Notes: generated by a model from the sequence alone, not told the origin. Counted from the first letter of the stretch, positions 1 through 18,681 are shown. The stretch: 18,681 bases of DNA from Candidatus Pacearchaeota archaeon (GCA_025058615.1 JANXDM010000004.1:1-18681); one strand, 5' to 3'. Made by a program: numbers and translations.

Positions 1-1789
1 GATTTGCATGCCATGTTCCTGTAAAGTTTCCCCAAAGCTGCAATGTGCTCAAGCGCATGTTGTCTGCACATTTCAGGCTGAAGTTTATAGTCCTGCTGCT
101 GAAGAAAGAATTATTTACAGGAATTCCCAAAGTTACCAAAGGATTTGTCAAATCTATATGCAAGATTCTTGTCTCGCTCACATTCATATTTCCTCCTGTG
201 TCGTTTGCATAAACCCTATAAGTATAGGTTCCTTGTGAAAGATTTACTTTTGTAGCATTACATATTGCCCATCTATCGTATCGTGTTATATTCATGCTTT
301 CATTAACACCTTGCCATTCAAGAATGCAAGATGAAATGTTTGATTGCATGTCTGTAACATTTACTGCTATTGTAACATTTCCTATACTGATGTAAGAATT
401 GTTTGCAGGCGTAGGACTTATGAATGTTATTACAGGCAAGGACGTGTCTACATGTAATGTATAGTTGCTTGGGGCAAAAGAGCATTGGCTTGCGTTGTCA
501 CAAGCATAACAATTCCATACATAAGTTCCTTCTGCAACCCGGATCTGAAATGTTACGGGTGTTTTGTTTTGCGGCGTTGTGTTTGTTTCATTTGCATTCC
601 ATGTTCCGGTAAAGTTGCCGTATAAAGTAACATTCACTAGTTGAAAGTCATCATAAGCTGTGCATGTGAAGTTAATAATTTGAGAATTGGAAATGTGATT
701 GTTTGGTGGCGAATCTAAAGTAACAACTGGAAAATTATCTTGAATTTCTACAATTGTAAACCAAGATTCTGAAGAAGAAGTGTAATTTTGGTTTCCAGTC
801 CAATTACAAAGCCATTGGAATTTGCCTCGCACCTCTAGGAGTTGTTGCAATATAAGTGGGTCATTTTCTTCAGCTATAAGTTTCATATTGTTGTCAGGAT
901 AAGTTGTATAAAGATATACAAAACCTGTTTCAGGAACGAGCAAATCACATTTTATTTCTGCGGTCTCTCCTGGTCTGTAAGTTCTGTTGTTTCTTGTTCC
1001 ATTGAGATATAAAGCAATTTCTGAAGGAGCTTTTTCTATTGTGAAGATCCATGTGTCGCTCGAGTTCCATTGGTTGCTGGTATCTTCCGCATAACTTTTC
1101 CAGTAGTGAATTCCTGCAGGAAGCACAGAAGAAAAAACATAAATTCCGTTTGAATTGTTCATTGTATAATTTTGGGGTATTCCAGAAAAATTGCTTTCGA
1201 GCAGGACGGTGCTTACTCCATGATCGTCACGCCATTCTATAGAAAAATTAGAAAGTATTTGGGGTGAATAAATCTTTGGAACAGAAGTTGTGTTGTTGCT
1301 CCAATAAGGAGGGTTATCTCCTTGCCAAGAGCAACCTGCAAAAGAGCATGCATTACATTCTTCGAAATTGTTACATGCTTCACAACTGCCTTGATTATTC
1401 ATGCAACGCCCTTCAAGCTGGCATCCAGCATAACTCATGTATTCACACCTTTCTTCCGGCATCACCTGCTTACAGTCGGGAGAACCAGAATTCATACATC
1501 GCCTCCCTCCCCATATACAATAAGGCCGAGCCCCAAGACAACCGCTTTCATTTCCATCCCAAACACTACAGTCAAATCTTCCAGAACACATTATAAAAGA
1601 AAAAGAACATTGTGAACACGAGTTGCACAATGATTTGTTGTTATCTGCGTTATGGCAGTTGAGTTCTCCTATACAAAAACCTCGGCCTTCTGCTTCTTGC
1701 GTTGTCTTGAAAATAAAAAATACAGATAAGACTAACACAAGCAACACAAAAGCACCAATTCCTACTTTTATCAAAGATTTTTTGTTCAT
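1..1789 (-). CDS. Cys-rich, sequon-dense surface protein; N-terminal 596 aa, 3' end runs off the window
   Basis: Absent from the supplied track because it has no stop in the window. The reverse frame is open from ATG (1789..1787) to the window edge; I translated it by hand and checked plus-strand triplets for tta/cta/tca. Product starts MNKKSLIKVGIGAFVLLVLVLSVFFIF (signal anchor). A Cys-dense block follows (CIGELNCHN...CSQC...CEAC...CNAC), then repeated beta-rich modules ending LYGNFTGTWNAN / LWGNFTGTWHAN, with dozens of N-x-S/T sequons. The plus-strand track ORFs here are antisense artefacts. Confidence 0.8.
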   Translation of the reverse strand, partial: MNKKSLIKVGIGAFVLLVLVLSVFFIFKTTQEAEGRGFCIGELNCHNADNNKSLCNSCSQCSFSFIMCSGRFDCSVWDGNESGCLGARPYCIWGGRRCMNSGSPDCKQVMPEERCEYMSYAGCQLEGRCMNNQGSCEACNNFEECNACSFAGCSWQGDNPPYWSNNTTSVPKIYSPQILSNFSIEWRDDHGVSTVLLESNFSGIPQNYTMNNSNGIYVFSSVLPAGIHYWKSYAEDTSNQWNSSDTWIFTIEKAPSEIALYLNGTRNNRTYRPGETAEIKCDLLVPETGFVYLYTTYPDNNMKLIAEENDPLILQQLLEVRGKFQWLCNWTGNQNYTSSSESWFTIVEIQDNFPVVTLDSPPNNHISNSQIINFTCTAYDDFQLVNVTLYGNFTGTWNANETNTTPQNKTPVTFQIRVAEGTYVWNCYACDNASQCSFAPSNYTLHVDTSLPVITFISPTPANNSYISIGNVTIAVNVTDMQSNISSCILEWQGVNESMNITRYDRWAICNATKVNLSQGTYTYRVYANDTGGNMNVSETRILHIDLTNPLVTLGIPVNNSFFSSRTINFSLKCADNMRLSTLQLWGNFTGTWHAN

Positions 1790-1951
1790 CCTCTTTTGTA
1801 ATTGTTTGATGATTTTTACATTTATAAGTTTTTTGTGTTATTTTTTATTTTTTATTTCTCAATTGTTGAAATTTTTTATTTTTAAGTGGTATCATTTTAA
1901 GAATTATAGAAAAGTTTTTAAAGGCATCATTCTTAAAAACAATGAAGAAAA

Positions 1952-2188
1952 ATGAAAAAAAATTTAATAAAAAATACATCAAAATTAATTGTTCCTTTAG
2001 CTCTTTTCGCAACGACATTGATTGAAAGAGAAAAGGTTGGTTCAACTTTTGATAGTTTAGGTAATTTTTTAACCAATCTTTTTACGAACCAAGCTTGTGG
2101 TGCAGCTGCTTTTGAAGGACAAATACTTCCAAATCAAGGGATCTTGTTTTCATTCATAGAGTTATTGGGGGAATCGAGGATAGTTTGA
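1952..2188 (+). CDS. Signal-peptide-bearing 78-aa fragment, probably the displaced 5' part of the downstream gene
   Basis: MKKNLIKNTSKLIVPLALFATTLIE looks like a signal peptide (basic N-region plus hydrophobic core). The ORF ends inside the start of the next ORF, which itself lacks any signal peptide. A TATA-like tttttaaag lies about 35 nt upstream. Confidence 0.4.
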   Translation: MKKNLIKNTSKLIVPLALFATTLIEREKVGSTFDSLGNFLTNLFTNQACGAAAFEGQILPNQGILFSFIELLGESRIV

Positions 2189-4254
2189 TAGGATGGGCAG
2201 ATATTGGTAGTGATGGTTTTTATCGTTGTGAACTTTATGATTTGAATAGGGGAGATACAGTAAGACTTAAATTTAAAAATAATCGAGATTCTCCTTCGCT
2301 CGCAGAAATTCATTTTCCTGATGTTCGAGGAGGAATAATACCAATATTAAATTTTCCACCAACGATTCATTGCAGACGAAATTCTACTGAACCTCTTATT
2401 AATTTCACAACCTATAGGGTTGAGGATTTCTTTTTTAGAGCTAGAGCTCGTGGTCATATTTATGTTGTATGCTTTACAAAGAATAACCCAAATATTGTTG
2501 TGGACACAATTAATTTATCACCATCATATTATCAGCATGCGATGCATCTACACTTACAACTACTACCTGACCCTGATAGCGTAAAATTCATTTTTGTAAG
2601 GGATGGTGAAGATATAAATTATTGTTTAATAGACAGCATTCCGAGAGATGGTGGTTGGTTGGATGCAAGAAAAAATGGCGATGATGTAATAATGCTTAAA
2701 AAATTTTATGGTGAGCCTGGAGGAAGGTCTAATAATGTATATGACACTATTCACTTATACGGTATTTTAGTTATCAAACCACATGATATAGAAGTAAAAA
2801 GTGTAAATGCACCGCGGCAAGTTTCACAAGGTAAAATCTTTACAGCAAAAGTTCACGTAAAAAATAACAAATGGTTTAACGCACAAGTACCTTTAGTCTT
2901 GAATCTCTTTAATCCTTCAGGTGATAGTATCGAAACTGCTTTGAAAATAGACACTCTTGGACCTTTTGAACACAACATCTTAGACTTTGAAGTCAGTACA
3001 AGAAATTTGCCTCCCGGTAATTATAAAATTGTTGCCATCGCTAGAGCTAACAATGATCAAAACACTAGTAATGATACTGCTTCGACTCAGATAGAAATTG
3101 TTCCAGGACCACCACCCGGCTGGCAAGAAAGAAGTAATGTCCCTCCTGGTCCTAAAAACAAAAAATGTAAAGAAGGAACAGATGCTTGCTCAGATGCTTA
3201 TTATAATATCCACTTGTTTAAAGGAGGGACTCTCGAGTATTATGTTTATGATCCAAATCAAAATATTTGGATCCAAAGAACAGATTTGCCAGCCGGAAAA
3301 AGAGGAAAAGCAAAAAAAGGTTCTTCTATAATATACGCTGATGGCAAAATTTACTTTAAACACGGCAACAGTGAAGAATTCTATCGAAAAGACACAGCTA
3401 TCGGAGCCCCGTGGGAATCTCTTGCTAGCTTTACATTTAATAATAAAAATGTTAAAGTTAAAGATGGGACTGACTTAGTTTGGGATGGTAGAGATACTCT
3501 TTTTATGACTTGTGGTAATATTAGCTATAATAAAAAAGCAATTGTTGCGAAATATGACATTAAAAGCAATAGTTGGACATATGAATTTTTTCCTTTTGTT
3601 GATAAGTTCAAAGGGGGAACTTCGATGGCGTTTTCCCCTATAGATAGTTCAATTTGGCTTGTACCAGGAAAAACGCGATCGATATATAGACGTACACGTG
3701 AAGGAACATGGGAAAAAGTTGTAGATATTCCTGATGTACCAGAAAAAAAACCAAAAAGTATAGCCTGGCTTGATTCTTCTATTTATGTAGCAGTAGGAGG
3801 AAAGGAGGGAAGGAACTTTGTTCGATATAATCTTGCCACAAACAACTGGGAGCTGTTGCAATCATTCCCATCAATAAAGGGGAAACAACCAAAGCGTCCT
3901 GTTCTTGTATCGACTGAAGAAGAGATTTATGGTTTGGGAGGAAATAATACAAATAATTTTTTTGTATATAATCCACCACCATTGTTGAGCTTTAGCTGTC
4001 TGGAAAACAAAATCGAAAAAATAAAAAACAACAAAGAAGAAACAATAATCGTAAAGAGCAATGACTATGACAGCTATGTTATCTCTGGGAAAATACCTTG
4101 TAATGGTTATATTTACGATATAACTGGAAAAAAAGTTGGTGAAGTTAACAAGGGAGTTCTTAATATAAGCAATTTAAGACCAGGTATCTATTATTTACAA
4201 ACGAAGGATGATAGAAAAGAAAAAATTAAGAGTTACAAAATTGTAGTAAAATAA
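2185..4254 (+). CDS. Secreted-type multidomain protein: N-terminal unknown region, CARDB-like domain, Kelch-like beta-propeller, T9SS-type (Por_Secre_tail-like) C-terminal domain
   Basis: 689-aa ORF with a TTG start in the track; its frame stays open upstream to 2116. Residues ~199-306 (HDIEVKSVNAP...GNYKIVAIARANNDQNTSNDTASTQIEIV) follow the CARDB pattern. Residues ~310-600 carry repeated YDxxxNxW / IYxxGG blade-like units. The last ~70 aa (IYDITGKKVGEVNKGVLNISNLRPGIYYLQTKDDRKEKIKSYKIVVK) match the T9SS sorting-domain pattern. Confidence 0.8.
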   Translation: MIGWADIGSDGFYRCELYDLNRGDTVRLKFKNNRDSPSLAEIHFPDVRGGIIPILNFPPTIHCRRNSTEPLINFTTYRVEDFFFRARARGHIYVVCFTKNNPNIVVDTINLSPSYYQHAMHLHLQLLPDPDSVKFIFVRDGEDINYCLIDSIPRDGGWLDARKNGDDVIMLKKFYGEPGGRSNNVYDTIHLYGILVIKPHDIEVKSVNAPRQVSQGKIFTAKVHVKNNKWFNAQVPLVLNLFNPSGDSIETALKIDTLGPFEHNILDFEVSTRNLPPGNYKIVAIARANNDQNTSNDTASTQIEIVPGPPPGWQERSNVPPGPKNKKCKEGTDACSDAYYNIHLFKGGTLEYYVYDPNQNIWIQRTDLPAGKRGKAKKGSSIIYADGKIYFKHGNSEEFYRKDTAIGAPWESLASFTFNNKNVKVKDGTDLVWDGRDTLFMTCGNISYNKKAIVAKYDIKSNSWTYEFFPFVDKFKGGTSMAFSPIDSSIWLVPGKTRSIYRRTREGTWEKVVDIPDVPEKKPKSIAWLDSSIYVAVGGKEGRNFVRYNLATNNWELLQSFPSIKGKQPKRPVLVSTEEEIYGLGGNNTNNFFVYNPPPLLSFSCLENKIEKIKNNKEETIIVKSNDYDSYVISGKIPCNGYIYDITGKKVGEVNKGVLNISNLRPGIYYLQTKDDRKEKIKSYKIVVK

Positions 4255-9021: not shown

Positions 9022-9408
9022 TTAATATTCCTCGACAATCAACTTTTTTTGTCTTACTATAATGACTTTTTTGTTTTGTGCTTTCAATTTTTTCTTTAAT
9101 TCTGAATCCATCGTTGCTACAACAACATCATTTTCTTTGGAAAAATCTAGAATTGCTTCGTCAACATTTTTTTTTGTTTTTAAGTATTTCGCTTCCCCTT
9201 TTTTCACCCATTTTTTTATTATTTCCATTGCAAGAATCGCTGCTTCTCTGTCTTGCAATTTCTTTTTTTTGTTTTTGCTTATTCTTTCTAGTTCTACAAT
9301 TACTTTATCCAAGATGATAAATTTGTAGCCGAGAGTTTCTAGATTGTGAAACAATTTGTATTTTGCGGCGTAAACCAAAAAATTTGTGTCGAAAATTAGT
9401 GATGGCAT
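9022..9408 (-). CDS. PIN-domain nuclease, Fcf1/Utp24-like (COG1412 type)
   Basis: MPSLIFDTNFLVYAAK...ILDKVIVELERI...VDEAILDFSKENDVVVATMDSELKKKL carries the acidic PIN residues in Fcf1-like spacing. The start is trimmed to ATG 9408, leaving a 13-nt overlap with the GNAT stop. Confidence 0.7.
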   Translation of the reverse strand: MPSLIFDTNFLVYAAKYKLFHNLETLGYKFIILDKVIVELERISKNKKKKLQDREAAILAMEIIKKWVKKGEAKYLKTKKNVDEAILDFSKENDVVVATMDSELKKKLKAQNKKVIIVRQKKLIVEEY

Positions 9409-9887
9409 TTTTTTATTTTTTTTGTAAAAATTATTCCTGTTTTGTTGATTCCGAACCAATCTTTGATTTTTGCACTTTCTTTGAACCCGTTCTTGATATA
9501 GAATTTTTTTCCTGAAACATCTTTGTTTTCAAGATCCACGCACAAAAGATAATACCCTTTTGGTAGTTTCTTTTCAGCTTTTTTCAATAAAATAGTTCCT
9601 ATTTTTTTTCTTCTGTATTTTTTGTCTACCACAAAAAAATAAATCCACGCTTTTGGTTTATCGAGAACCTTAACTATTATTGCTCCTAGTAATTTCTTGT
9701 CTAGGAAGGCTCCAAAACAAATACCATTTTTTATAGCTCCTTTGATGAATTTTCTTGTGAGCCACAGCTCTCCTTCGAAGGCTTGCACCCCTAACGAGTA
9801 TACTTTTTCTGCGTCTCTTTCTTTGATCTTTTTTATTACTAATTTTTTTATTACTAATTCATCCAGTTTCGTCTTGCTTGTTTTCAT
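9396..9887 (-). CDS. GNAT family N-acetyltransferase (RimI/Ard1-like)
   Basis: Acetyl-CoA motif VVDKKYRRKKIGTILLKKAE (Q/RxxGxG/A type), then YIKNGF. Confidence 0.8.
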   Translation of the reverse strand: MKTSKTKLDELVIKKLVIKKIKERDAEKVYSLGVQAFEGELWLTRKFIKGAIKNGICFGAFLDKKLLGAIIVKVLDKPKAWIYFFVVDKKYRRKKIGTILLKKAEKKLPKGYYLLCVDLENKDVSGKKFYIKNGFKESAKIKDWFGINKTGIIFTKKIKKCHH

Positions 9888-10398
9888 TTTTTGAAAATTC
9901 GTTCCTGGGCAAATTAAAATAATCGTAGAATTTTTCAGTCAGACTTAATTCTAAAGTTCTGCCTAATTTTTTTCCTCGTACAAGACCAGCAATCATCAAA
10001 TGCTTTATATGCTCGTAAGCTTTGTTTCCCCTTATCTTTACAACCACGCTTTGCTTTATCGGCTGCTTATAGGCTATTATTGCCAAAGTTTCTTGTTCTG
10101 CTTTACTGAATTCAGCTTTTCCTGTTGCAAGTTTATTCATCAAATAATGGAATTCTGGCTCGACATCCATTTTGTAATATTCTTCCTCTTTGTCTTTTTC
10201 ACTAAATTTTTGTTTCACTATACAGATTGAAGAATCAATATTCTTGTATTTTTCTTCGAGCTTTGAAAGCAATTCTCTTATAGTTATAGGGTTTATTCCA
10301 GTAATTTTCGTTAGCTCTCCTATAGACATAAACTTTGCAGAAAGAAAAAGAACTGCTTCTATTTTTTTCATCAATTCTTTTTCTTTTGTTTCTTCCAT
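9859..10398 (-). CDS. scpB: Segregation and condensation protein B (ScpB)
   Basis: IEAVLFLSAKFMSIGELTKITG...ETLAIIAYKQPIKQSVVVKIRGNKAYEHIKHLMIAGLV reads as the tandem winged-helix ScpB pattern. Confidence 0.85.
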   Translation of the reverse strand: MEETKEKELMKKIEAVLFLSAKFMSIGELTKITGINPITIRELLSKLEEKYKNIDSSICIVKQKFSEKDKEEEYYKMDVEPEFHYLMNKLATGKAEFSKAEQETLAIIAYKQPIKQSVVVKIRGNKAYEHIKHLMIAGLVRGKKLGRTLELSLTEKFYDYFNLPRNEFSKNENKQDETG

Positions 10399-10439: not shown

Positions 10440-10709
10440 TCACTTAGCTTTTTTTCCAAATAAATAAGCGATAAGTACCGCAATTATTGTTACAAAGATA
10501 GCTATTAATAAAAGCCAAAAATGGTTTTTTCCACCTTTTTCTATGACTGGCTTCATAACAGCCTGAACCCAATTATTCCATTGAAGTGCTGCAACAAATC
10601 CAAACGCAGAAACTACAAGCGTTGCTATTTTTTCTTTTATATGTTCCTTTAGTTCTTTTGCTTTTTCTTTTATTTTTTCTTTTATTTCTTCCCTATTTTT
10701 CATTTTCAT
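10440..10709 (-). CDS. Small membrane protein: charged N-terminus plus two predicted TM helices
   Basis: Lys/Glu-rich MKMKNREEIKEKIKEKAKELKEHIKEK, then hydrophobic segments ATLVVSAFGFVAALQWNNWV and FWLLLIAIFVTIIAVLIAYLF. Packed between scpB and aRF1. Confidence 0.6.
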   Translation of the reverse strand: MKMKNREEIKEKIKEKAKELKEHIKEKIATLVVSAFGFVAALQWNNWVQAVMKPVIEKGGKNHFWLLLIAIFVTIIAVLIAYLFGKKAK

Positions 10710-10718
10710 TTGCTTTGC

Positions 10719-11831
10719 TTATTTTGGCTTTTCTACGGCAAAACGCAAAATCGCTCCTATACCCCCAAGGTTTTTGAATTGAATTCCTTCTTGTGTTTCT
10801 TCCGACACTAGTTCTACTTTCGCTCCTGTTAGAGAAGCTTTTTCTTTCAATTCTTGTTGTAATTTTTTATCTGTGTTTGTTGATAAAATTAAAATTTCTA
10901 CTGCACCAACTTCTAACGCCTTTTTTACATGTTCTAGGCCATAGGCAGCATACATCTTGTTCTTGCTAAGCATACTGAAAAATTTGTTCAACAATTGTTT
11001 TTCTTTCATTATTTCTTCTTGCTGTAATACATCTTGGCTCGCATGTACAAGCTCTTCCAAACCTTGTTCGTTAGTATAACTGACGTCTTTTATTGCTATG
11101 ATTTTCCTTTTCAAATCAGAGACCAAGTCCCCTTCTTTTAACCATTCTTCTTTTGTTGGGCCCGGTCCTCCCAAAAGCAAGCCTTTGAGTCTTGGTCTTT
11201 CGAAAAAAAGTTCTTTTACATGTTCTGAAATACGTCTGTAAAATTCTTTTGCCATTTCTTCGGTTAACCTATCAAATCGCGCTGCAGAAGAGCCACCTGT
11301 TTTGAATTTTCCAGGAACTCCGGAAGTCAAGTGTTTTAATTTTATTATGCTTTTCCCTTCGAGAAGCCCTATTGTAGCTTCTCTTCTATCGAGCACTATC
11401 AGACCATAAACATCTTTTGCTTCGAGCATTTCTTTTAAAGGATCAAGAACAAAGACCTGGTCGCATCTGTAAAGTTTTGTCTTCAAAGGTTGTGGCGGTT
11501 CTATTACCCATAACCTTATATCACTTTCTCCTTCTTTCTTACTTATATTTCCACAGAAAATAGCAAGACCGTTCTTTGGTAATTCTTTATAAAGTTTGAG
11601 ATGTCTTATTATTCTTTCTAACGCATCTATCACATTTGTTCTTGTTGTTTTGCTTTTTATGTTTTGTGCAGTACTTTGCTCTGCAATTACTTGGGAAGCA
11701 AGTTGACTCAAACTAGATCCTGCAGAAGCATAAATAGTTATTAGTTCAGTGTGTCTTCCTTTATAACTTTCTAATTCCTCGATTAGTTCCTTTAGTTTTT
11801 GCTTTTTTTCTTCTTCCATTTGGTCATACAA
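10719..11831 (-). CDS. prf1: Peptide chain release factor aRF1 with a non-canonical GGS in place of GGQ
   Basis: NIKS (aa 57-60), YxCxxxF (YRCDQVF, aa 121-127), the conserved context VPGKFKTGGSSAARFDRL (aa 172-189) and a C-terminal GGIGAILRF. Codons 179-181 are ggt ggc tct at 11297..11289. Confidence 0.9.
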   Translation of the reverse strand: MYDQMEEEKKQKLKELIEELESYKGRHTELITIYASAGSSLSQLASQVIAEQSTAQNIKSKTTRTNVIDALERIIRHLKLYKELPKNGLAIFCGNISKKEGESDIRLWVIEPPQPLKTKLYRCDQVFVLDPLKEMLEAKDVYGLIVLDRREATIGLLEGKSIIKLKHLTSGVPGKFKTGGSSAARFDRLTEEMAKEFYRRISEHVKELFFERPRLKGLLLGGPGPTKEEWLKEGDLVSDLKRKIIAIKDVSYTNEQGLEELVHASQDVLQQEEIMKEKQLLNKFFSMLSKNKMYAAYGLEHVKKALEVGAVEILILSTNTDKKLQQELKEKASLTGAKVELVSEETQEGIQFKNLGGIGAILRFAVEKPK

Positions 11832-14211
11832 AAAAAACTTCGAAATTTCCTTTTCCTATTTCTCGCGCAGCTGTTACGGCTTTCAGATCTTGCAACATTT
11901 TTTCTTTTTCTAACACATCGTAATCTTCTTCTTTTATCTTTAGAATTATTTCAGTTCTTAGTGATTTGTTGGCTCTTGCTTTTTCTCTTCTTACTCTTTC
12001 CAAAATTTTCAAGAAGGTTCTGCCTGCTTTCAAGATTTCTTCTTCTTTTTTTCCTATTTTCTTGTATTTTGGCCATTCTGCCAGATGTACAGATTTGCTT
12101 TTTTCTTGTTCTTTGAAGTAATTTTGCCAAATATATTCTGTCATGTGCGGCAATATCGGAGCAAGCATTTTGAGAAGAGAAACAAAAGTTTCGTAAAGAA
12201 CATAACGTGCAGAATTTTTTTCTTCTTCCTTTCCTTGATAAAGTCTAAACTTGAGTATTTCTATGAAGTTATCACAAAAAGAATGCCAGAAAAATTTTTC
12301 CAAAAGAAGTTTCGCAGCAGTATAATCATATTTTTCCATGGCATCAGTAACTTTTTTTATTAATTCGTTTGTTTCTAAGAGGATAAATTTATCAAATCCT
12401 TGTAATTCTTTCTTTTTCGGTTTTTCTTTTGCATGAATTTTCAAAAATTGGAAAGCGTTCCATAACTTGATTAGCAATTTTTTTGCTGCTATAAATTCTC
12501 GTTCAGAAAACCACAAATCCTCACCTAGTTTTGCGCTTGCTGCCCAGAAATGCAACGCATCGGAACAATATTTTTCTATTATTTTTTCTGGTTCTATTAT
12601 GTTTCCTTTGCTTTTGGACATTTTCTTTCCTTTTTCGTCCAAGCACCAGCCGCTGATCATTATGTTATACCACGGAATATTTTTGTGAGCAAACCAAGAT
12701 CTTACTATTGTATTGAAAGCCCAAAAACTTATAATGTCATGTGCCTGCGGCCTTAAATCGAGTGGAAGCAATTTTTTTGCAATTTTCTTGTTTTTTTCTG
12801 CAACCAAATCTTTTACTATTTCAGGGGTTAAACTAGAAGTTGCCCAAGTGTCCATCACGTCTTTTTCTGGCACGAATTTGTTATATTTGCACTTAGGACA
12901 TTTCTTTGTGGGGGCTTCATCTTTTGAGGGATCGACAGGAAGCTGCTTTTCTTTTGCCAAAATTACTGTTTCACATCTCTTACAATACCAGACTGGAAAA
13001 GGTACACCAAAATAACGTTGCCTAGAAATGCACCAGTCCCATTGCAATCCCTTTACCCAATTTTCATAACGAGAAAACATATGTGCAGGAAACCATTTGA
13101 CCTTTTTTCCTAACTCTAAAAATTTTTCTTTCAAATCAAGGTATTTTATAAACCATTGTTTTGTGACTAAAAATTCTATTTTTGTTCCACAACGTTCGTG
13201 AACATTTACCGTGTGTTTTATCTTTCTTGTTTGTACTAATTTACCTTCTTTTTTCAGGTCCTCTATTATTGCTTTCCTTGCTTCTTCTATAGACATTCCT
13301 GAATATTTTCCTGCGAGGTTTCCAAGTTTACCCTCCTCGTCTATGATTTTCTTGTAAGGTAGACCGTATGCTTTCCACCATTCTATATCTGTCGTATCAC
13401 CAAAAGTGCAACACATTACTATTCCTGTCCCTTTGTTTATGTCCACGCGTCTGTCTTCAAGAATAGGAACAAAATGATTGTAAATAGGAACTATCGCACG
13501 ATTGTGCTTTAATTTTTTGTATCTTTCATCTTGTGGATTATAAAATACAGCAACACATGCTCCTAGCATTTCCGGCCGTGTTGTAGAAACAACAAAAGAT
13601 TCCATCTTTTCTGTTTCGAAAATTATGTCACAAAAGAAAGTTTCTTCTTCTTTGTCTTGTAGTTCTACTTGGGCAACTGCTGTTTTGCATTCTGGACACC
13701 ACATTATCGGAGCTTCCTTTCTATAGGAACGGCCTTTTTTGAAAAGTTCTATGAAGCTATACTGGGAAATTCTTTTGCATCTTTCATCTATTGTTCTATA
13801 AAGAAGAGAAAAGTCGGCGCTGAGTGCTATTTTTTTCCATACCTCTATCCATCTTTTTTCTATTTTTTCTGACTCTTCGAAGCATATTTTTTTGAATTTT
13901 TCTATTCCTATTTCTTTTGCTTTTTTTCCTAACTTCCTTTCTATGTATCTTTCTGTCGGCAATCCGTTATCATCAAAGCCAAAAGGATAAAGAACGTTAT
14001 AACCTTGCATTCTCTTGTATCTTGCAATTATGTCTTGATGTATGTAGCTCATTGCGTGGCCTATGTGGAGTTCTCCAGAAACTGTCGGTGGTGGAGTGTC
14101 TATAGAAAAAATCTTTTTTTTGGATTTTTCATCAAAAGAAAAAATTTTTTCGCTTTCCCAAAATTCTTGCACTTCTTTCTCGATGGCATGCAAATCAAGT
14201 CCTTCTTTCAT
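11824..14211 (-). CDS. valS: Valyl-tRNA synthetase (compact, 795 aa)
   Basis: IDTPPPTVSGELHIGHA (HIGH), KMSKS (GKKMSKSKGN), editing-domain motifs TTRPEMLGA and GTGIVMCCTFGDTTD, and DTWATSS. 8-nt overlap with the aRF1 start. Confidence 0.88.
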   Translation of the reverse strand: MKEGLDLHAIEKEVQEFWESEKIFSFDEKSKKKIFSIDTPPPTVSGELHIGHAMSYIHQDIIARYKRMQGYNVLYPFGFDDNGLPTERYIERKLGKKAKEIGIEKFKKICFEESEKIEKRWIEVWKKIALSADFSLLYRTIDERCKRISQYSFIELFKKGRSYRKEAPIMWCPECKTAVAQVELQDKEEETFFCDIIFETEKMESFVVSTTRPEMLGACVAVFYNPQDERYKKLKHNRAIVPIYNHFVPILEDRRVDINKGTGIVMCCTFGDTTDIEWWKAYGLPYKKIIDEEGKLGNLAGKYSGMSIEEARKAIIEDLKKEGKLVQTRKIKHTVNVHERCGTKIEFLVTKQWFIKYLDLKEKFLELGKKVKWFPAHMFSRYENWVKGLQWDWCISRQRYFGVPFPVWYCKRCETVILAKEKQLPVDPSKDEAPTKKCPKCKYNKFVPEKDVMDTWATSSLTPEIVKDLVAEKNKKIAKKLLPLDLRPQAHDIISFWAFNTIVRSWFAHKNIPWYNIMISGWCLDEKGKKMSKSKGNIIEPEKIIEKYCSDALHFWAASAKLGEDLWFSEREFIAAKKLLIKLWNAFQFLKIHAKEKPKKKELQGFDKFILLETNELIKKVTDAMEKYDYTAAKLLLEKFFWHSFCDNFIEILKFRLYQGKEEEKNSARYVLYETFVSLLKMLAPILPHMTEYIWQNYFKEQEKSKSVHLAEWPKYKKIGKKEEEILKAGRTFLKILERVRREKARANKSLRTEIILKIKEEDYDVLEKEKMLQDLKAVTAAREIGKGNFEVFFV

Positions 14212-14312: not shown

Positions 14313-14329
14313 AAAATCTCTTGAGAACA

Positions 14330-17191
14330 ATGAAGAAAAAAAGAGGAAAAAAAAGTAAAGCTTCCGGCCATATAAGTTTTGAAGATCGACTTAAGAAACC
14401 TGTTACAGAAGTACACAAAGAAAAAATAATTTTGCTTTTATTTCTTTTGTTTGTGGTTCTTGCTTTGATAATAATGTTCAAACAACCATTGGAGCAGGAA
14501 CAAATTGTGGGAAGAGCGGTTTCTGGACTAGAATTAGAAAAAACAAAATTTGATGCAGGAGAAAACTTACAAGGAAAAATAACCCTTGCATTGCATCCTG
14601 AAGATATTTTGCCCCAAAATACAACATTACTAATAACAATTTTAACAAACGCTTCTAAGTGCCCTACAAGATATGTGTGTGCAGATGGAAGCACTGTTCC
14701 TTGGTATGTTTTCAATTTAACAACACAACAATGCCAGCTCGCAAGAATTGATCCTGAAGGAGATTGTTGCATCCGCCAAGGAGCTAATTGTAAAGAAGGA
14801 ATTTTGAACAAAAATTTTAATCCTAACCCTACAGACCCAAGCAAGGTAGAAAGATGGGTAAAGCTTTTTTCACCTTCGCCTTCTTCTTTCGATTTAGGTG
14901 CGGTAGGAACAGAAGAAGTTGTGGTTGGAGCTGACGAGGAAGGAAATCCTATTTTTTCTTCTGCTGTATTTTTAGATACTTCTTTGCAGCTTGCTGATTT
15001 TGCATCTGGAAGAATAATCTTGAACCAAAATATCGCTCCTAGAAATTTCAAAATTTCTGATCTTGGGCCTCCAACAGTTCCTCCACCACAACAACCACAA
15101 CAGTATTGTGATGATTCTGATAGAGGAAGAAACTATACTTCAAGAGGAACATGCAAGGACCCGGATGGAATTTATAATGATGGTTGTACTGGTTTTAAAT
15201 TTGTGTATCTGATAGAATGGTTCTGTAACACTACAACGAACAAATGCCAGCCTGAAATAATGTTTTGTCCCCATGGATGTGTAGATGGGAGATGTCTTTC
15301 TTCACCTCCTCAGGTACAGGTACCTCCTCCTCAGGTAGTACCTTGTGATGATTCGGATGGAGGAAGAAATTATACTTCAAGAGGAACATGCAAGGACCCG
15401 GATGGAATTTATAATGATACCTGTGAAGGTCTACCAACGAGCACTCACCCTTTTTTAAGAGAATGGTTCTGTAACACTACAACGAACAAATGCCAATATG
15501 AAATAATTTCTTGTCTGTATGGATGTGTAGATGGGAGATGTCTTTCTTCACCTCCTCAGGTATCTCATCCTCAGGTAGTAACTGGTGCAGCAATCACGGG
15601 TCAAGCAATTCAATCACATATTATACCTTATCAATCTTTAAAATGGGCTGTGGCATGGCAAGATGTTCTCGGAGAAGGAAAAAATTGTGCTTTTGAGGTT
15701 ATTGTCAGAAGTAATAATAGAAGCTTGCATTATTATTACAAATTAAACAATGTATGCAGCAAACCATCTGATAATACAACAGATAAATACATAGAACTTG
15801 CTCCTCCAACAGCTACTCAAGATCCGTATGATCCGCTTTCTGTTTACTGGAAAATAGAATCTAGAGATCTTTATTCAGATTGGAAAAGCAAATTCGGAGC
15901 ACAAGAAAATGATGTTCTTGTTGAAATTCAGCTTGTTTCGCATGCAAAAAAAGTTGATACTACATACTATAATCAAAGAGTTTGGTGGGATTATATAAAA
16001 CTGAACAAGTATGGCTATACAGAACCTTCAGACAGTTGTATTGCAAGAGGTAAAAAATGTTGTGCTAAAGAAACAGGTTTTGGAAATTATTTCGGTGATC
16101 AATTGAAATGCCCGACAGAACTTGGAGAGACAGAATGTTGGTCTTCCTGTACTGATTTTGCCCACTTGACGCTTACACAATTCATTCGCAGTTCCGATGC
16201 AAGGACAAAGTACAATACAACAGAAGGAGAATGTCAATTTGTTAAAGACGGGCAAGTAATTAGCTTGAACGATTATTGTTATCCAGGTTATGCCGGAAGA
16301 GGTTATACCGCTTGCCTAAATACAGGAAGCAATGCTCCAATAAATTGCAGAAATTGGGACAACACTTATACCTTATTTTTGAATAATCTTGCTCTTAAAG
16401 CTCCGAATCAGAGCGGTTCTTATATTTTGAAAGCAGAATTTTTCTATACTAATCAGATTGGAGAGACAATAGAAATATTTTCACGATCATTGGGCTTCAT
16501 AGTAGGTGATGTTATTTTTGGTGGAGGAGGAGCTGTAGAAAATTGGGAATGCTCTCCTTGGAGTTCTTGCATAAATGGTATACAATTTACCAATTGCACT
16601 GAGATACAAACAGGAAGGCGTGAAGTAAAAAATAGAACATGCTGTTGGGCATGTAGCGAGTGGCAGCCTGCAGAATGCCCTGAAAATAGAACACAAACAA
16701 GAACATGTATATTGAGCATGATAGATGAATGTCCTATACAAAGTGCAGAGAAACCAAACGAAATGCAAAGTTGCGAACCTTCTTTACAGCCTTGCACAGA
16801 AGAAGACTGGCGATGTGTAGATGATGCCAAATGCATAAATGGAATAAGAAGAAGGATGTGTGAAAAGATAAGGCCATGTGATGAGGCAACAGGGTATGTT
16901 CCGGACACAGAAATAGAATGCAGAAAAGGATTTAGAATAGGTGGTTTGACAATTTACATAGTAATTGTTGCTGTAGCTGCTGCTGTTGCAATCCTTTTAC
17001 TTCTAAAAATTCTAAAAAAGCCAACAAAAAAACAAGAAAAAAAAGCGAGGTATCCTGAAGTTGTTTCTTACATAAAAGAGGCCCTTGCAGCAGGAGCTTC
17101 CAGGAAAGAAATAGAAACAAAGCTTCTCGAGGCAGGATGGCCTAAAGACATAATTGATGAAAGTTTTGGAGCTGCCGGTTTCTCCGTATAA
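14330..17191 (+). CDS. Large Cys-rich surface protein: N-terminal signal anchor, tandem CxDSDGGxNY repeats, thrombospondin-like W/C modules, C-terminal TM helix and a short cytoplasmic tail
   Basis: The track ORF starts at TTG 14321; I prefer ATG 14330 (MKKKRGKK). N-terminal TM IILLLFLLFVVLALIIMF and C-terminal TM LTIYIVIVAVAAAVAILLLL. The tail is YPEVVSYIKEALAAGASRKEIETKLLEAGWPKDIIDESF. The 255-aa antisense ORF at 14284..15051 is an artefact. Confidence 0.85.
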   Translation: MKKKRGKKSKASGHISFEDRLKKPVTEVHKEKIILLLFLLFVVLALIIMFKQPLEQEQIVGRAVSGLELEKTKFDAGENLQGKITLALHPEDILPQNTTLLITILTNASKCPTRYVCADGSTVPWYVFNLTTQQCQLARIDPEGDCCIRQGANCKEGILNKNFNPNPTDPSKVERWVKLFSPSPSSFDLGAVGTEEVVVGADEEGNPIFSSAVFLDTSLQLADFASGRIILNQNIAPRNFKISDLGPPTVPPPQQPQQYCDDSDRGRNYTSRGTCKDPDGIYNDGCTGFKFVYLIEWFCNTTTNKCQPEIMFCPHGCVDGRCLSSPPQVQVPPPQVVPCDDSDGGRNYTSRGTCKDPDGIYNDTCEGLPTSTHPFLREWFCNTTTNKCQYEIISCLYGCVDGRCLSSPPQVSHPQVVTGAAITGQAIQSHIIPYQSLKWAVAWQDVLGEGKNCAFEVIVRSNNRSLHYYYKLNNVCSKPSDNTTDKYIELAPPTATQDPYDPLSVYWKIESRDLYSDWKSKFGAQENDVLVEIQLVSHAKKVDTTYYNQRVWWDYIKLNKYGYTEPSDSCIARGKKCCAKETGFGNYFGDQLKCPTELGETECWSSCTDFAHLTLTQFIRSSDARTKYNTTEGECQFVKDGQVISLNDYCYPGYAGRGYTACLNTGSNAPINCRNWDNTYTLFLNNLALKAPNQSGSYILKAEFFYTNQIGETIEIFSRSLGFIVGDVIFGGGGAVENWECSPWSSCINGIQFTNCTEIQTGRREVKNRTCCWACSEWQPAECPENRTQTRTCILSMIDECPIQSAEKPNEMQSCEPSLQPCTEEDWRCVDDAKCINGIRRRMCEKIRPCDEATGYVPDTEIECRKGFRIGGLTIYIVIVAVAAAVAILLLLKILKKPTKKQEKKARYPEVVSYIKEALAAGASRKEIETKLLEAGWPKDIIDESFGAAGFSV
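15107..15580 (+). repeat. Intragenic tandem repeat, 2 x 237 nt (79 aa), mosaic of identical and divergent blocks
   Basis: Copies at 15107..15343 and 15344..15580. Three blocks are identical: acttcaagaggaacatgcaaggacccggatggaatttataatgat, gaatggttctgtaacactacaacgaacaaatgcca and ggatgtgtagatgggagatgtctttcttcacctcctcaggta. These flank a fully diverged block (GCTGFKFVYLI vs TCEGLPTSTHPFLR). Confidence 0.9.
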
Positions 17192-17940: not shown

Positions 17941-18213
17941 ATGACTTCTAAATAAATTTTGAAAGTATAAGTTTTTCTAAACTTTTTTCTCAGAATTGTA
18001 ACCAACTTCTTTCAAGCGTTCTTTTCATTTTTTAGTTTTCAAATCCTTCCTACCCTATATATTGTTCTGTGTCAATACCTTCATAATTCCAACTTTAAGT
18101 TATTCTTCTTTAGAAATTTACAAACGAAACAAGACACTTCAAACATGGGAAAAAAGCAAAATCATCTAAAAGAGTCTCTTAATTTCTTAACAGAGATTAT
18201 GAGACATCATAGT

Positions 18214-18681
18214 AAGGAGTGAGGCTTTTAGTAGGCGCGTGCTGAACTCCTCGTTGCCTTGGAGCTTACACACCGCCTCTATCAACGTCCTCTTCTTGGA
18301 CGGCCTTAGTTGCCTATTTTCGCGGGCTGCTTCGCACTTAGATGCTTTCAGTGCTTATCAGCCAGAGCGTAGCTGCTCGGCGTACCCTGTAAGGATAGCC
18401 GATTGACCAGAGGCTCCCGAAGCCCGTTCCTCTCGTACTAAGGCTTCGTTCCACTCAGGCAACAACACGCCCAGTAGATATCAAACATACTGTCTCACGA
18501 CGTATTGAACCCAGCTAACGATCCCTTTTAACGCGTGAACCCCGGTACCCTTGGCTGCTTCTGCACAGCCAGGATAGGAAGAGCCGACAGCGAAGTACCA
18601 AACCGCGCCGTCAATATGGACTATCGGGCGCGACCAGCCTGTTATCCTTGGGGTACCTTTTCTGCTATCTCCAGGCCCCAT
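18214..18681 (-). rRNA. 23S (LSU) rRNA, 3'-terminal ~470 nt (domains V-VI); 5' part lies beyond the window
   Basis: The reverse complement contains GGATAACAGGCTG, TGTCGGCTCTTCCTATC, GCTGGGTTCAATACGTCGTGAGACAG, the sarcin-ricin loop AGTACGAGAGGAAC, GCACTGAAAGCATCTAAG and GTTGATAGAGGCGGTGTGTAAGC. A sharp GC rise sets the 3' end at about 18214 (+/-10 nt). Confidence 0.92.

Follow-up and report, generated by a model that had tools for sequence, protein, structure and literature searches.

[quoted passage not shown] Both the glutamine and its methylation are said to be conserved universally, in all three domains of life (PMC6144793, PMC5799190), and loss of the residue serves comparative genomics as a marker of catalytic inactivity (PMC6514570). 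The aRF1 gene of a Candidatus Pacearchaeota archaeon (GCA_025058615.1), located on the 18,681-nucleotide stretch of DNA that was analysed here as a whole (hereafter the window; JANXDM010000004.1:1-18681), reads GGS instead. An earlier note, made from the sequence alone, had pointed to this gene and had offered three explanations: a lineage that terminates with a serine-based motif, a hydrolysis-impaired paralog beside a canonical factor, or a decaying gene. We asked which of these, if any, the gene, its relatives and its surroundings favor.

Identity of the gene and of its motif

The open reading frame is an aRF1, as the earlier note had recognized. Its protein scores 423.6 bits against the aRF1/eRF1 equivalog TIGR03676 (cut-off 234.7), carries the Pfam domains eRF1_1, eRF1_2 and eRF1_3 (PF03463, PF03464, PF03465) in order and all above their gathering scores, and contains both NIKS and YRCDQVF (Table 1). 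Searches against solved aRF1/eRF1 structures gave E-values of 5e-71 and 4e-57. The 366-residue translation (MEEEKKQK...) is that of NCBI MCS7134406.1, [quoted passage not shown], from a 20,613-bp contig. An ATG start at 11819 agrees with this record and with the N-termini of homologs (MEEE...). Counted from it, the serine is residue 177 and not 181, and a 4-nt spacer follows the valS stop codon (11826..11824) where an 8-nt overlap had been described. Since the overlap rested on an over-extended TTG start, the argument against decay that was drawn from it fails.

Table 1. Features of the window around the aRF1 gene, with the 23S rRNA segment (positions counted from the first letter of the window)
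Feature	Position	Strand	Basis or remark
aRF1 CDS	10719..11819	-	366 aa, ATG start; mechanical ORF reaches TTG 11831
GGS tripeptide (G175 G176 S177) replacing GGQ	11289..11297	-	Ser codon TCT 11291..11289
NIKS, stop-codon recognition motif, residues 53-56	11652..11663	-	direct reading
YRCDQVF (YxCxxxF), stop-codon recognition motif, residues 117-123	11451..11471	-	direct reading
valS (valyl-tRNA synthetase), upstream neighbor	11824..14211	-	70-72% identity to sister valS upstream of GGQ aRF1
DUF5654-like small membrane protein, downstream neighbor	10440..10709	-	matches PF18898 gene after aRF1 in L002/L004
ScpB, downstream, closes syntenic block	9859..10398	-	tblastn to sister ScpB genes
23S rRNA 3' end, including 3' half of peptidyl-transferase center	18208..18681	-	Rfam RF02540, 436 bits

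The loop at the tip of domain 2 reads TSGVPGKFKTGGSSAARFDRL, and its minus-strand codons, ggt ggc TCT tct gca gcg cga, spell G-G-S-S-A-A-R. In a phmmer alignment (E = 5e-71) this serine falls on the glutamine of GGQ in the Halobacterium aRF1 structure 4AF1, GKQRKGGQSAQRFARL, so the codon reading and the alignment both bear out the reported replacement of glutamine by serine. With GGS where the GGQ tripeptide is expected, the protein is, judged from its sequence, an aRF1 homolog and ortholog that stands outside the motif-based definition of an active release factor. The stop-codon recognition motifs that it shares are well conserved among 150 representative homologs: N, I and K of NIKS are present in 139, 136 and 137 of 142 (96-98%), the fourth position is serine in 122 of 142 and aspartate in 15, and Y, C and F of YxCxxxF are conserved at 98-99%.

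Two other identities were considered and rejected. The Pelota profile TIGR00111 reaches 90.9 bits, below its cut-off of 177.65, with a match limited to residues 140-362, and domain 1 is eRF1_1 with NIKS, which does not fit Pelota/Dom34. Matches to the baeRF/VLRF1 families (PF18854, 50.6 bits; PF18859, 41.3 bits) both lie under a stronger eRF1_2 match (125 bits), and the loop GGSSAARF has no glutamine two residues on, unlike the GGxSQ/GxuQ loops of those proteins.

An orthologous gene in its usual place

The gene sits where its GGQ relatives sit. In the closest relatives the block runs valS, aRF1, (DUF5654), ScpB, PIN, Rpb7, the same order as in the window, and the ScpB of the window is 72-73% identical by tblastn to the ScpB genes found downstream of the sisters' GGQ aRF1. 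The arrangement valS-aRF1-(DUF5654)-ScpB is common to L001/L003, L002/L004, L005 and L008, all of them GGQ, and extends to relatives at 67-72% identity (L005, L008). Adjacency of valS and aRF1 is also seen in L005, L008, L009, L010 and L013, and more loosely in L011. Because the synteny from valS through aRF1 to ScpB is kept, we regard the window gene as the positional ortholog of GGQ aRF1 genes.

This position bears directly on the suggestion that the gene is a paralog that binds stop codons, is impaired in hydrolysis and acts in regulation or rescue beside a second, canonical GGQ aRF1. Precedent for such a protein exists, in that release factor derivatives without the glutamine are known, for example Dom34/Pelota and MRPS35 (PMC6514570). 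The orthologous valS-aRF1-ScpB slot disfavors it, however, as do the retention of every other family-invariant residue and a normal evolutionary rate (see below). In addition, no two of the best 120 matches share a large contig, among them near-complete Pacearchaeota contigs of 0.58-0.71 Mb. We consider a paralog improbable, and this is probably the only class-1 factor of its genome.

Several features of the surroundings deserve mention in their own right. The linkage of valS and aRF1 spans from Pacearchaeota to Bathyarchaeia (L056:285-4157, L020, L010, L011 and window 10719-14211), with the gene order inverted in Bathyarchaeia, where valS comes after aRF1. A 163-aa ORF of the window (9396-9887, minus strand), placed between ScpB and the PIN-domain gene, overlaps both neighbors by ~30-60 nt, and tblastn found no counterpart of it in the sister loci. 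The window also encodes three very large predicted secreted or surface proteins, at 1-1837 (minus), 2185-4254 (plus) and 14321-17191 (plus). One of them runs off the window start, with 612 aa seen, and a 956-aa one carries a duplicated Cys-rich module (CDDSD[RG]GRNYTSRGTCKDPDGIYND...). These proteins are only 30-47% identical to their sister counterparts and thus far more diverged than the housekeeping genes beside them.

Purifying selection on the rest of the protein

We defined near-invariant columns as those conserved at 95% or more among 114 other close homologs, which yielded 95 columns. The window protein deviates at one of them, the glutamine itself, and the median number of deviations in the other sequences is also one. 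Compared with its two sisters it shows a dN of 0.155-0.164 with saturated dS. To 11 outgroups it is on average 70.2% identical, and the GGQ sisters are 71.8% and 70.2%, so we see no acceleration of its rate. Conserved columns, dN and outgroup identity all lack a sign of relaxation and so lend no support to a pseudogene or a drifting paralog; the dN/dS near 1 that the earlier note had contemplated is not seen, dN being far below dS. A decaying pseudogene, for which the loss of a textbook catalytic residue might speak, is hardly credible in view of the intact 366-codon frame, the single deviation in a conserved column and the retained synteny. The earlier doubt about decay was well placed, on these grounds rather than on the overlap. 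Local compensation within the protein was likewise considered and rejected, the 12 residues on either side of the serine being identical to those of the sisters.

How private is the serine?

All 119 other proteins among the best 120 matches, down to 59% identity, have glutamine at this position. The closest two (P0002 and P0003; 79% and 78% identity) come from hot-spring Pacearchaeota MAGs, GCA_038895375.1 and GCA_038894195.1, and both carry CAA at the glutamine codon. The codon alignment confirms that TCT differs from CAA at all three bases. It also tells against a whole lineage terminating with serine, for which the earlier note had named CAA or CAG in sister genomes as the contrary observation. 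Clustering at 90% identity leaves the window protein by itself, on a single contig, in a collection of ~15 billion proteins. The serine would thus be at most a species- or strain-level private allele.

A singleton of this kind invites the explanation that TCT is an artefact, either a consensus or assembly error or a minority deleterious variant, and that the population carries CAA. The uniform glutamine of the 119 nearest homologs and the identical flanking residues of the sisters speak in its favor. A replacement of three bases, on the other hand, is atypical of sequencing error. The same three changes also count against a genuine serine, since the direct paths from CAA to TCT pass through a stop codon, proline or histidine/tyrosine. 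Further evidence on this explanation comes from other aRF1 genes.

GGQ is not universal among archaeal aRF1

The earlier note had assumed glutamine in every class-1 release factor, and metagenomic aRF1 sequences contradict this. We searched JGI metagenome contigs with a degenerate DNA pattern, PGK-x3-GG-[codon not starting with C]-S-A-x-R-[FY]-x-R, and obtained 35 loci, of which 22 are genuine aRF1 homologs (31-49% identity to the window protein); most of the full-length ones have NIKS and YxCxxxF. At the glutamine position these 22 have GGW (14), GGS (3; L017, L020, L040), GGF (2), GGE (1) or an in-frame TAG (2). A phmmer search with the window protein against 1.84 billion representatives of 50%-identity clusters gave a second view. 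Among the best 150 representatives, 147 have a residue in the glutamine column, and it is glutamine in 123 and something else in 24 (W13, M5, F3, A2, S1). Both glycines are present in 147 of 147, and the glutamine column ranks only 41st in conservation among 200 columns.

The kinds of replacement are restricted. Those in the best 150 representatives are uncharged and either bulky and hydrophobic or small; K, E, H, R, P and L were absent from this set, several of them being mutationally closest to CAA/CAG. The sole charged replacement in any of the searches is the GGE of metagenome locus L049. This pattern fits, as far as sequences can tell, a packing role for the (methylated) glutamine side chain. 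In three protein searches that together gave 390 aRF1 sequences, deviations occur at the glutamine codon and never at the adjacent glycine codons, which points to biology filtered by selection rather than to random error. Error therefore seems an unlikely general explanation for non-glutamine aRF1, and the same regularity weighs against an artefact in the window.

Some replacements are inherited. In a neighbor-joining tree of 240 sequences, glutamine is at the root and at least 17 changes occur in the column. Non-glutamine states are scattered over the tree, unlike the outcome of one deep duplication, a further point against a paralog. A GGW clade has 15 members that are mutually closest at ~67-93% identity, with the nearest glutamine-bearing neighbors at 56-62%. 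The GGW loci (L021, L024-L029, L033-L035, L042, L046-L048, L011 and L051:10001-12739) come from many metagenomes, and the clade's proteins are full-length, PGKTKAGGWSANRYAR, with NIKS and YxCxxxF kept, on contigs of up to 464 kb. One GGW protein, P0235, is found on 7 assembled contigs, including one of 464 kb. Within a second cluster (P0231, P0225, P0229, P0234, P0242) M, F and W alternate. GGW and GG[M/F/W] thus form stable clades, and the "universal" GGQ motif is, at the level of sequence, less universal than assumed.

We found no description of natural non-glutamine aRF1 in the freely accessible full-text literature, and an earlier report elsewhere is possible. A 41-aa synthetic Q-to-S profile run against a 5.8-billion-protein database returned only fragments of 37-72 aa, none of them GGS and one an eRF1-like GGP. 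Separately, P0176, a 48-aa NCBI entry from a 13,008-bp contig, is a eukaryote-like eRF1 fragment, HGRGGPTALRFSRLREEKRH, with proline at the glutamine position. Proline is the one substitution there that is reported to abolish catalysis (PMC4691834, PMC5799190).

Other serine alleles

Besides the window, six sequences carry GGS, among them L010, the two Bathyarchaeia contigs L020 and L040, the partial L017 and the intein-bearing P0332. L010 belongs to the GTDB-representative MAG CAYIBB01 ("Woesearchaeota"); it is 54% identical to the window protein, reads TSGVPGKAKTGGSSAARF with the serine codon AGT, and keeps the valS-aRF1-ScpB synteny, its ScpB being 47% identical to that of the window by tblastn. 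The 119 nearest relatives of L020 all have glutamine, four of them at 90-92% identity, and the codon change there is CAA TCA to TCA TCA at a dS of ~0.35. The nearest relatives of L040, at 86-88% identity, also have glutamine.

The serine codons differ between alleles (TCT, TCA and AGT), and because both codon and lineage set the window apart from the other cases, its GGS has an independent origin. Q-to-S has accordingly arisen several times independently, to go by these codons and lineages. The recurrence, with one instance in a GTDB-representative MAG with conserved synteny, tells against an artefact, while the remaining GGS cases, also tip singletons and on short metagenome contigs, speak for one. 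Weighing all of this, we judge an artefact or minority variant in the window unlikely. The window offers a single, candidate instance, but it opens onto a broader non-glutamine pattern that looks genuine and that those who study translation termination would not expect.

Persistence is a different matter. The tip singletons of the window, L020 and L040 have nearest relatives at 79%, 92% and 88% identity, and all of these carry glutamine. Wherever the point could be examined, GGS appears as a tip singleton whose persistence was not seen, unlike that of GGW, and this suggests that serine may be tolerated only briefly or be mildly deleterious. A GGS clade in Bathyarchaeia had seemed indicated when a sparse tree joined L020 and L040, but denser sampling gave each of them closer glutamine relatives (92% and 88%). 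We also rejected the idea that the serine codon duplicates the codon after it (TCT TCT in the window, TCA TCA in L020): the two are identical in 2 of 5 cases, which is not above the expectation from codon usage.

Inteins and stop codons at the GGQ site

Many aRF1 homologs, close Pacearchaeota relatives of the window gene among them, carry an intein exactly after the GGx tripeptide (GGQ|C, GGW|C, GGM|C, GGF|C, GGS|C). Such an intein occurs in 47 or more of the 150 representatives, and cases include L012:6001-7512, L013:5007-, L014:5578-, L015:257-1696, P0042, P0046, P0052, P0054, P0068 and P0235. The inteins are either mini-inteins of ~140 aa or of the LAGLIDADG homing endonuclease type, which gives proteins of 800-970 aa. 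Non-glutamine residues are enriched with an intein (13 of 47 versus 11 of 100; Fisher p = 0.016, a value not corrected for phylogeny). One possibility is that inteins inserted after the glutamine codon promote its replacement, through escape of the homing site or through an effect of the -1 residue on splicing. We found no description of inteins at GGQ in the freely accessible full-text literature.

Two further loci have an in-frame TAG exactly at the glutamine codon with conserved sequence beyond it: L031 (minus strand; ORF ~3000-3606 on the reverse complement) and L023:7023-8010. One base change separates TAG from CAG, and likewise from TGG (W) and TCG (S). Readthrough or autoregulation, recoding, and a nonsense mutation of recent date are candidate explanations for these codons.

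Ribosomal RNA and stop codon use

The window also contains part of the 23S rRNA (Table 1), in which C stands at the counterparts of E. coli A2503 and U2586, beside the peptidyl-transferase center; the archaeal Rfam consensus has a conserved A and U there. A compensatory rRNA change was considered and rejected for this 3' half of the center. The stretch is the same in the GGQ sister L053 (L053:2270-2754), which also has C at 2503 and 2586, and similar in L054 (L054:3270-3752), so the substitutions are a trait of the lineage and not linked to GGS. L054 additionally has C at 2504. As previously noted, each of the three stop codons is used by genes in the window (TAA 9, TGA 5, TAG 1).

A proposed mechanism of termination without the glutamine

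Published work on the GGQ loop indicates how a serine might be accommodated. The two glycines take a backbone conformation open to glycine only, and the main-chain amide of the glutamine coordinates hydrolysis (PMC6742477, PMC4691834, PMC5799190), this backbone amide being the catalyst (PMC6742477). A Q-to-P change abolishes release although the loop keeps its shape; the side chain serves to pack the pocket and to select water as nucleophile, and Q-to-E is reasonably active (PMC4691834, PMC5799190). N5-methylation of the glutamine improves the packing (PMC6742477, PMC4691834, PMC5799190). In Haloferax volcanii aRF1 the glutamine is methylated by Mtq2, for which a GGA mutant is not a substrate (PMC6144793). 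The published mechanism thus predicts that small or neutral side chains alter activity but do not remove it, and that proline alone does so (PMC4691834, PMC6742477, PMC6144793).

The window protein has intact all the parts that serve stop-codon binding and insertion of the loop into the peptidyl-transferase center, namely domain 1 with NIKS and YxCxxxF, both glycines, the start of the SAARFxRL helix and domain 3. In the model that we propose, hydrolysis would be driven mainly by the Gly-Gly backbone and the main-chain NH at the glutamine position, the glutamine side chain contributing packing and water selection. Ser177 is no target for methylation by Mtq2 and would leave a looser water pocket, and for these two reasons release is expected to be slower or less selective rather than absent. 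In our best reading the gene is the orthologous, probably the only, class-1 factor of its genome, with a private Gln177-to-Ser change, and most likely still releases peptides; we give this an even chance. Retained release is what we infer from conservation and the published mechanism, and the serine allele is probably real, still active and sub-optimal. Our confidence stays moderate mainly because persistence of GGS is not in evidence.

A less favorable view accepts the serine as real and takes the allele to be strongly impaired or dead, a deleterious mutation that arose recently in a small symbiont population prone to drift and is heading for reversion or extinction, with termination slow or achieved partly by other routes. 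GGS forms no clade, unlike GGW and GG[M/F/W]. The glutamine is reportedly essential in vivo in model-organism genetics: work by Song in 2000 and Mora in 2003 is reported to show that its substitution in yeast eRF1 and E. coli RF2 causes lethality or a failure to complement. Burroughs and Aravind treat the glutamine of classical aeRF-1 as conserved and equate its loss with catalytic inactivity (PMC6514570). Yet the rest of the window protein shows neither relaxation nor an increase in rate, catalysis does not reside in the glutamine side chain (PMC6742477, PMC4691834), and all three stop codons are in normal use. We think it rather unlikely that the allele is dead or nearly so.

Returning to the reading of an active serine factor, it is tempting to place it in a broader context. 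The window aRF1 may be a sole working factor without the GGQ glutamine or its methylation, one case of an unrecognized phenomenon of uncultivated archaea, mostly DPANN and also Bathyarchaeia, in which the glutamine is repeatedly replaced by W, M, F, A or S, stably so in the GGW and GG[M/F/W] clades. We advance this larger proposal tentatively, at somewhat below an even chance. A natural, orthologous and otherwise perfectly conserved serine aRF1, together with whole Trp, Met and Phe clades, would mean that in some ribosome contexts termination in vivo can do without the side chain, and would back a model of catalysis built on backbone amide and packing. Natural non-glutamine aRF1 proteins offer ready sequences with which the contribution of the glutamine and of its methyl group can be tested. 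They also call for caution in annotating non-glutamine release factors as inactive, and they prompt one to ask what role Mtq2 has in the lineages that carry them.

Comparison with known systems

The window protein resembles canonical aRF1 (Halobacterium salinarum 4AF1, Aeropyrum pernix 3AGK/3VMF) and eRF1 in its three domains, NIKS, YxCxxxF, Gly-Gly and the SAxRFxRL helix, and differs from them in having serine for glutamine. Unlike H. volcanii aRF1 (PMC6144793), its serine is not a substrate for glutamine methylation by Mtq2. The window protein and all its Pacearchaeota relatives also lack a ~40-aa insertion in domain 3 that canonical aRF1 and eRF1 possess.

Engineered mutants (H. volcanii GGA aRF1, release factor Q-to-E and RF2 Q253P) are substituted at the same position. 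Those are laboratory constructs, whereas the window allele is natural and lies in the orthologous gene of a free-living genome. Pelota/Dom34 and other proteins derived from release factors likewise belong to the eRF1 superfamily and have a loop without the glutamine (PMC6514570). Pelota, however, carries an Sm-like N-domain where the NIKS domain would be, and its loop is poorly conserved, while the GG loop of the window is otherwise perfectly conserved. Further parallels are the natural non-glutamine factors (GGW, GG[M/F/W], GGA, GGS), which belong to the same family and share NIKS and YxCxxxF; three of them (L010, L011, L020) adjoin or lie near valS, as the window aRF1 does. Unlike the GGW and M/F/W states, which are inherited across clades, the GGS of the window is an independent tip singleton.
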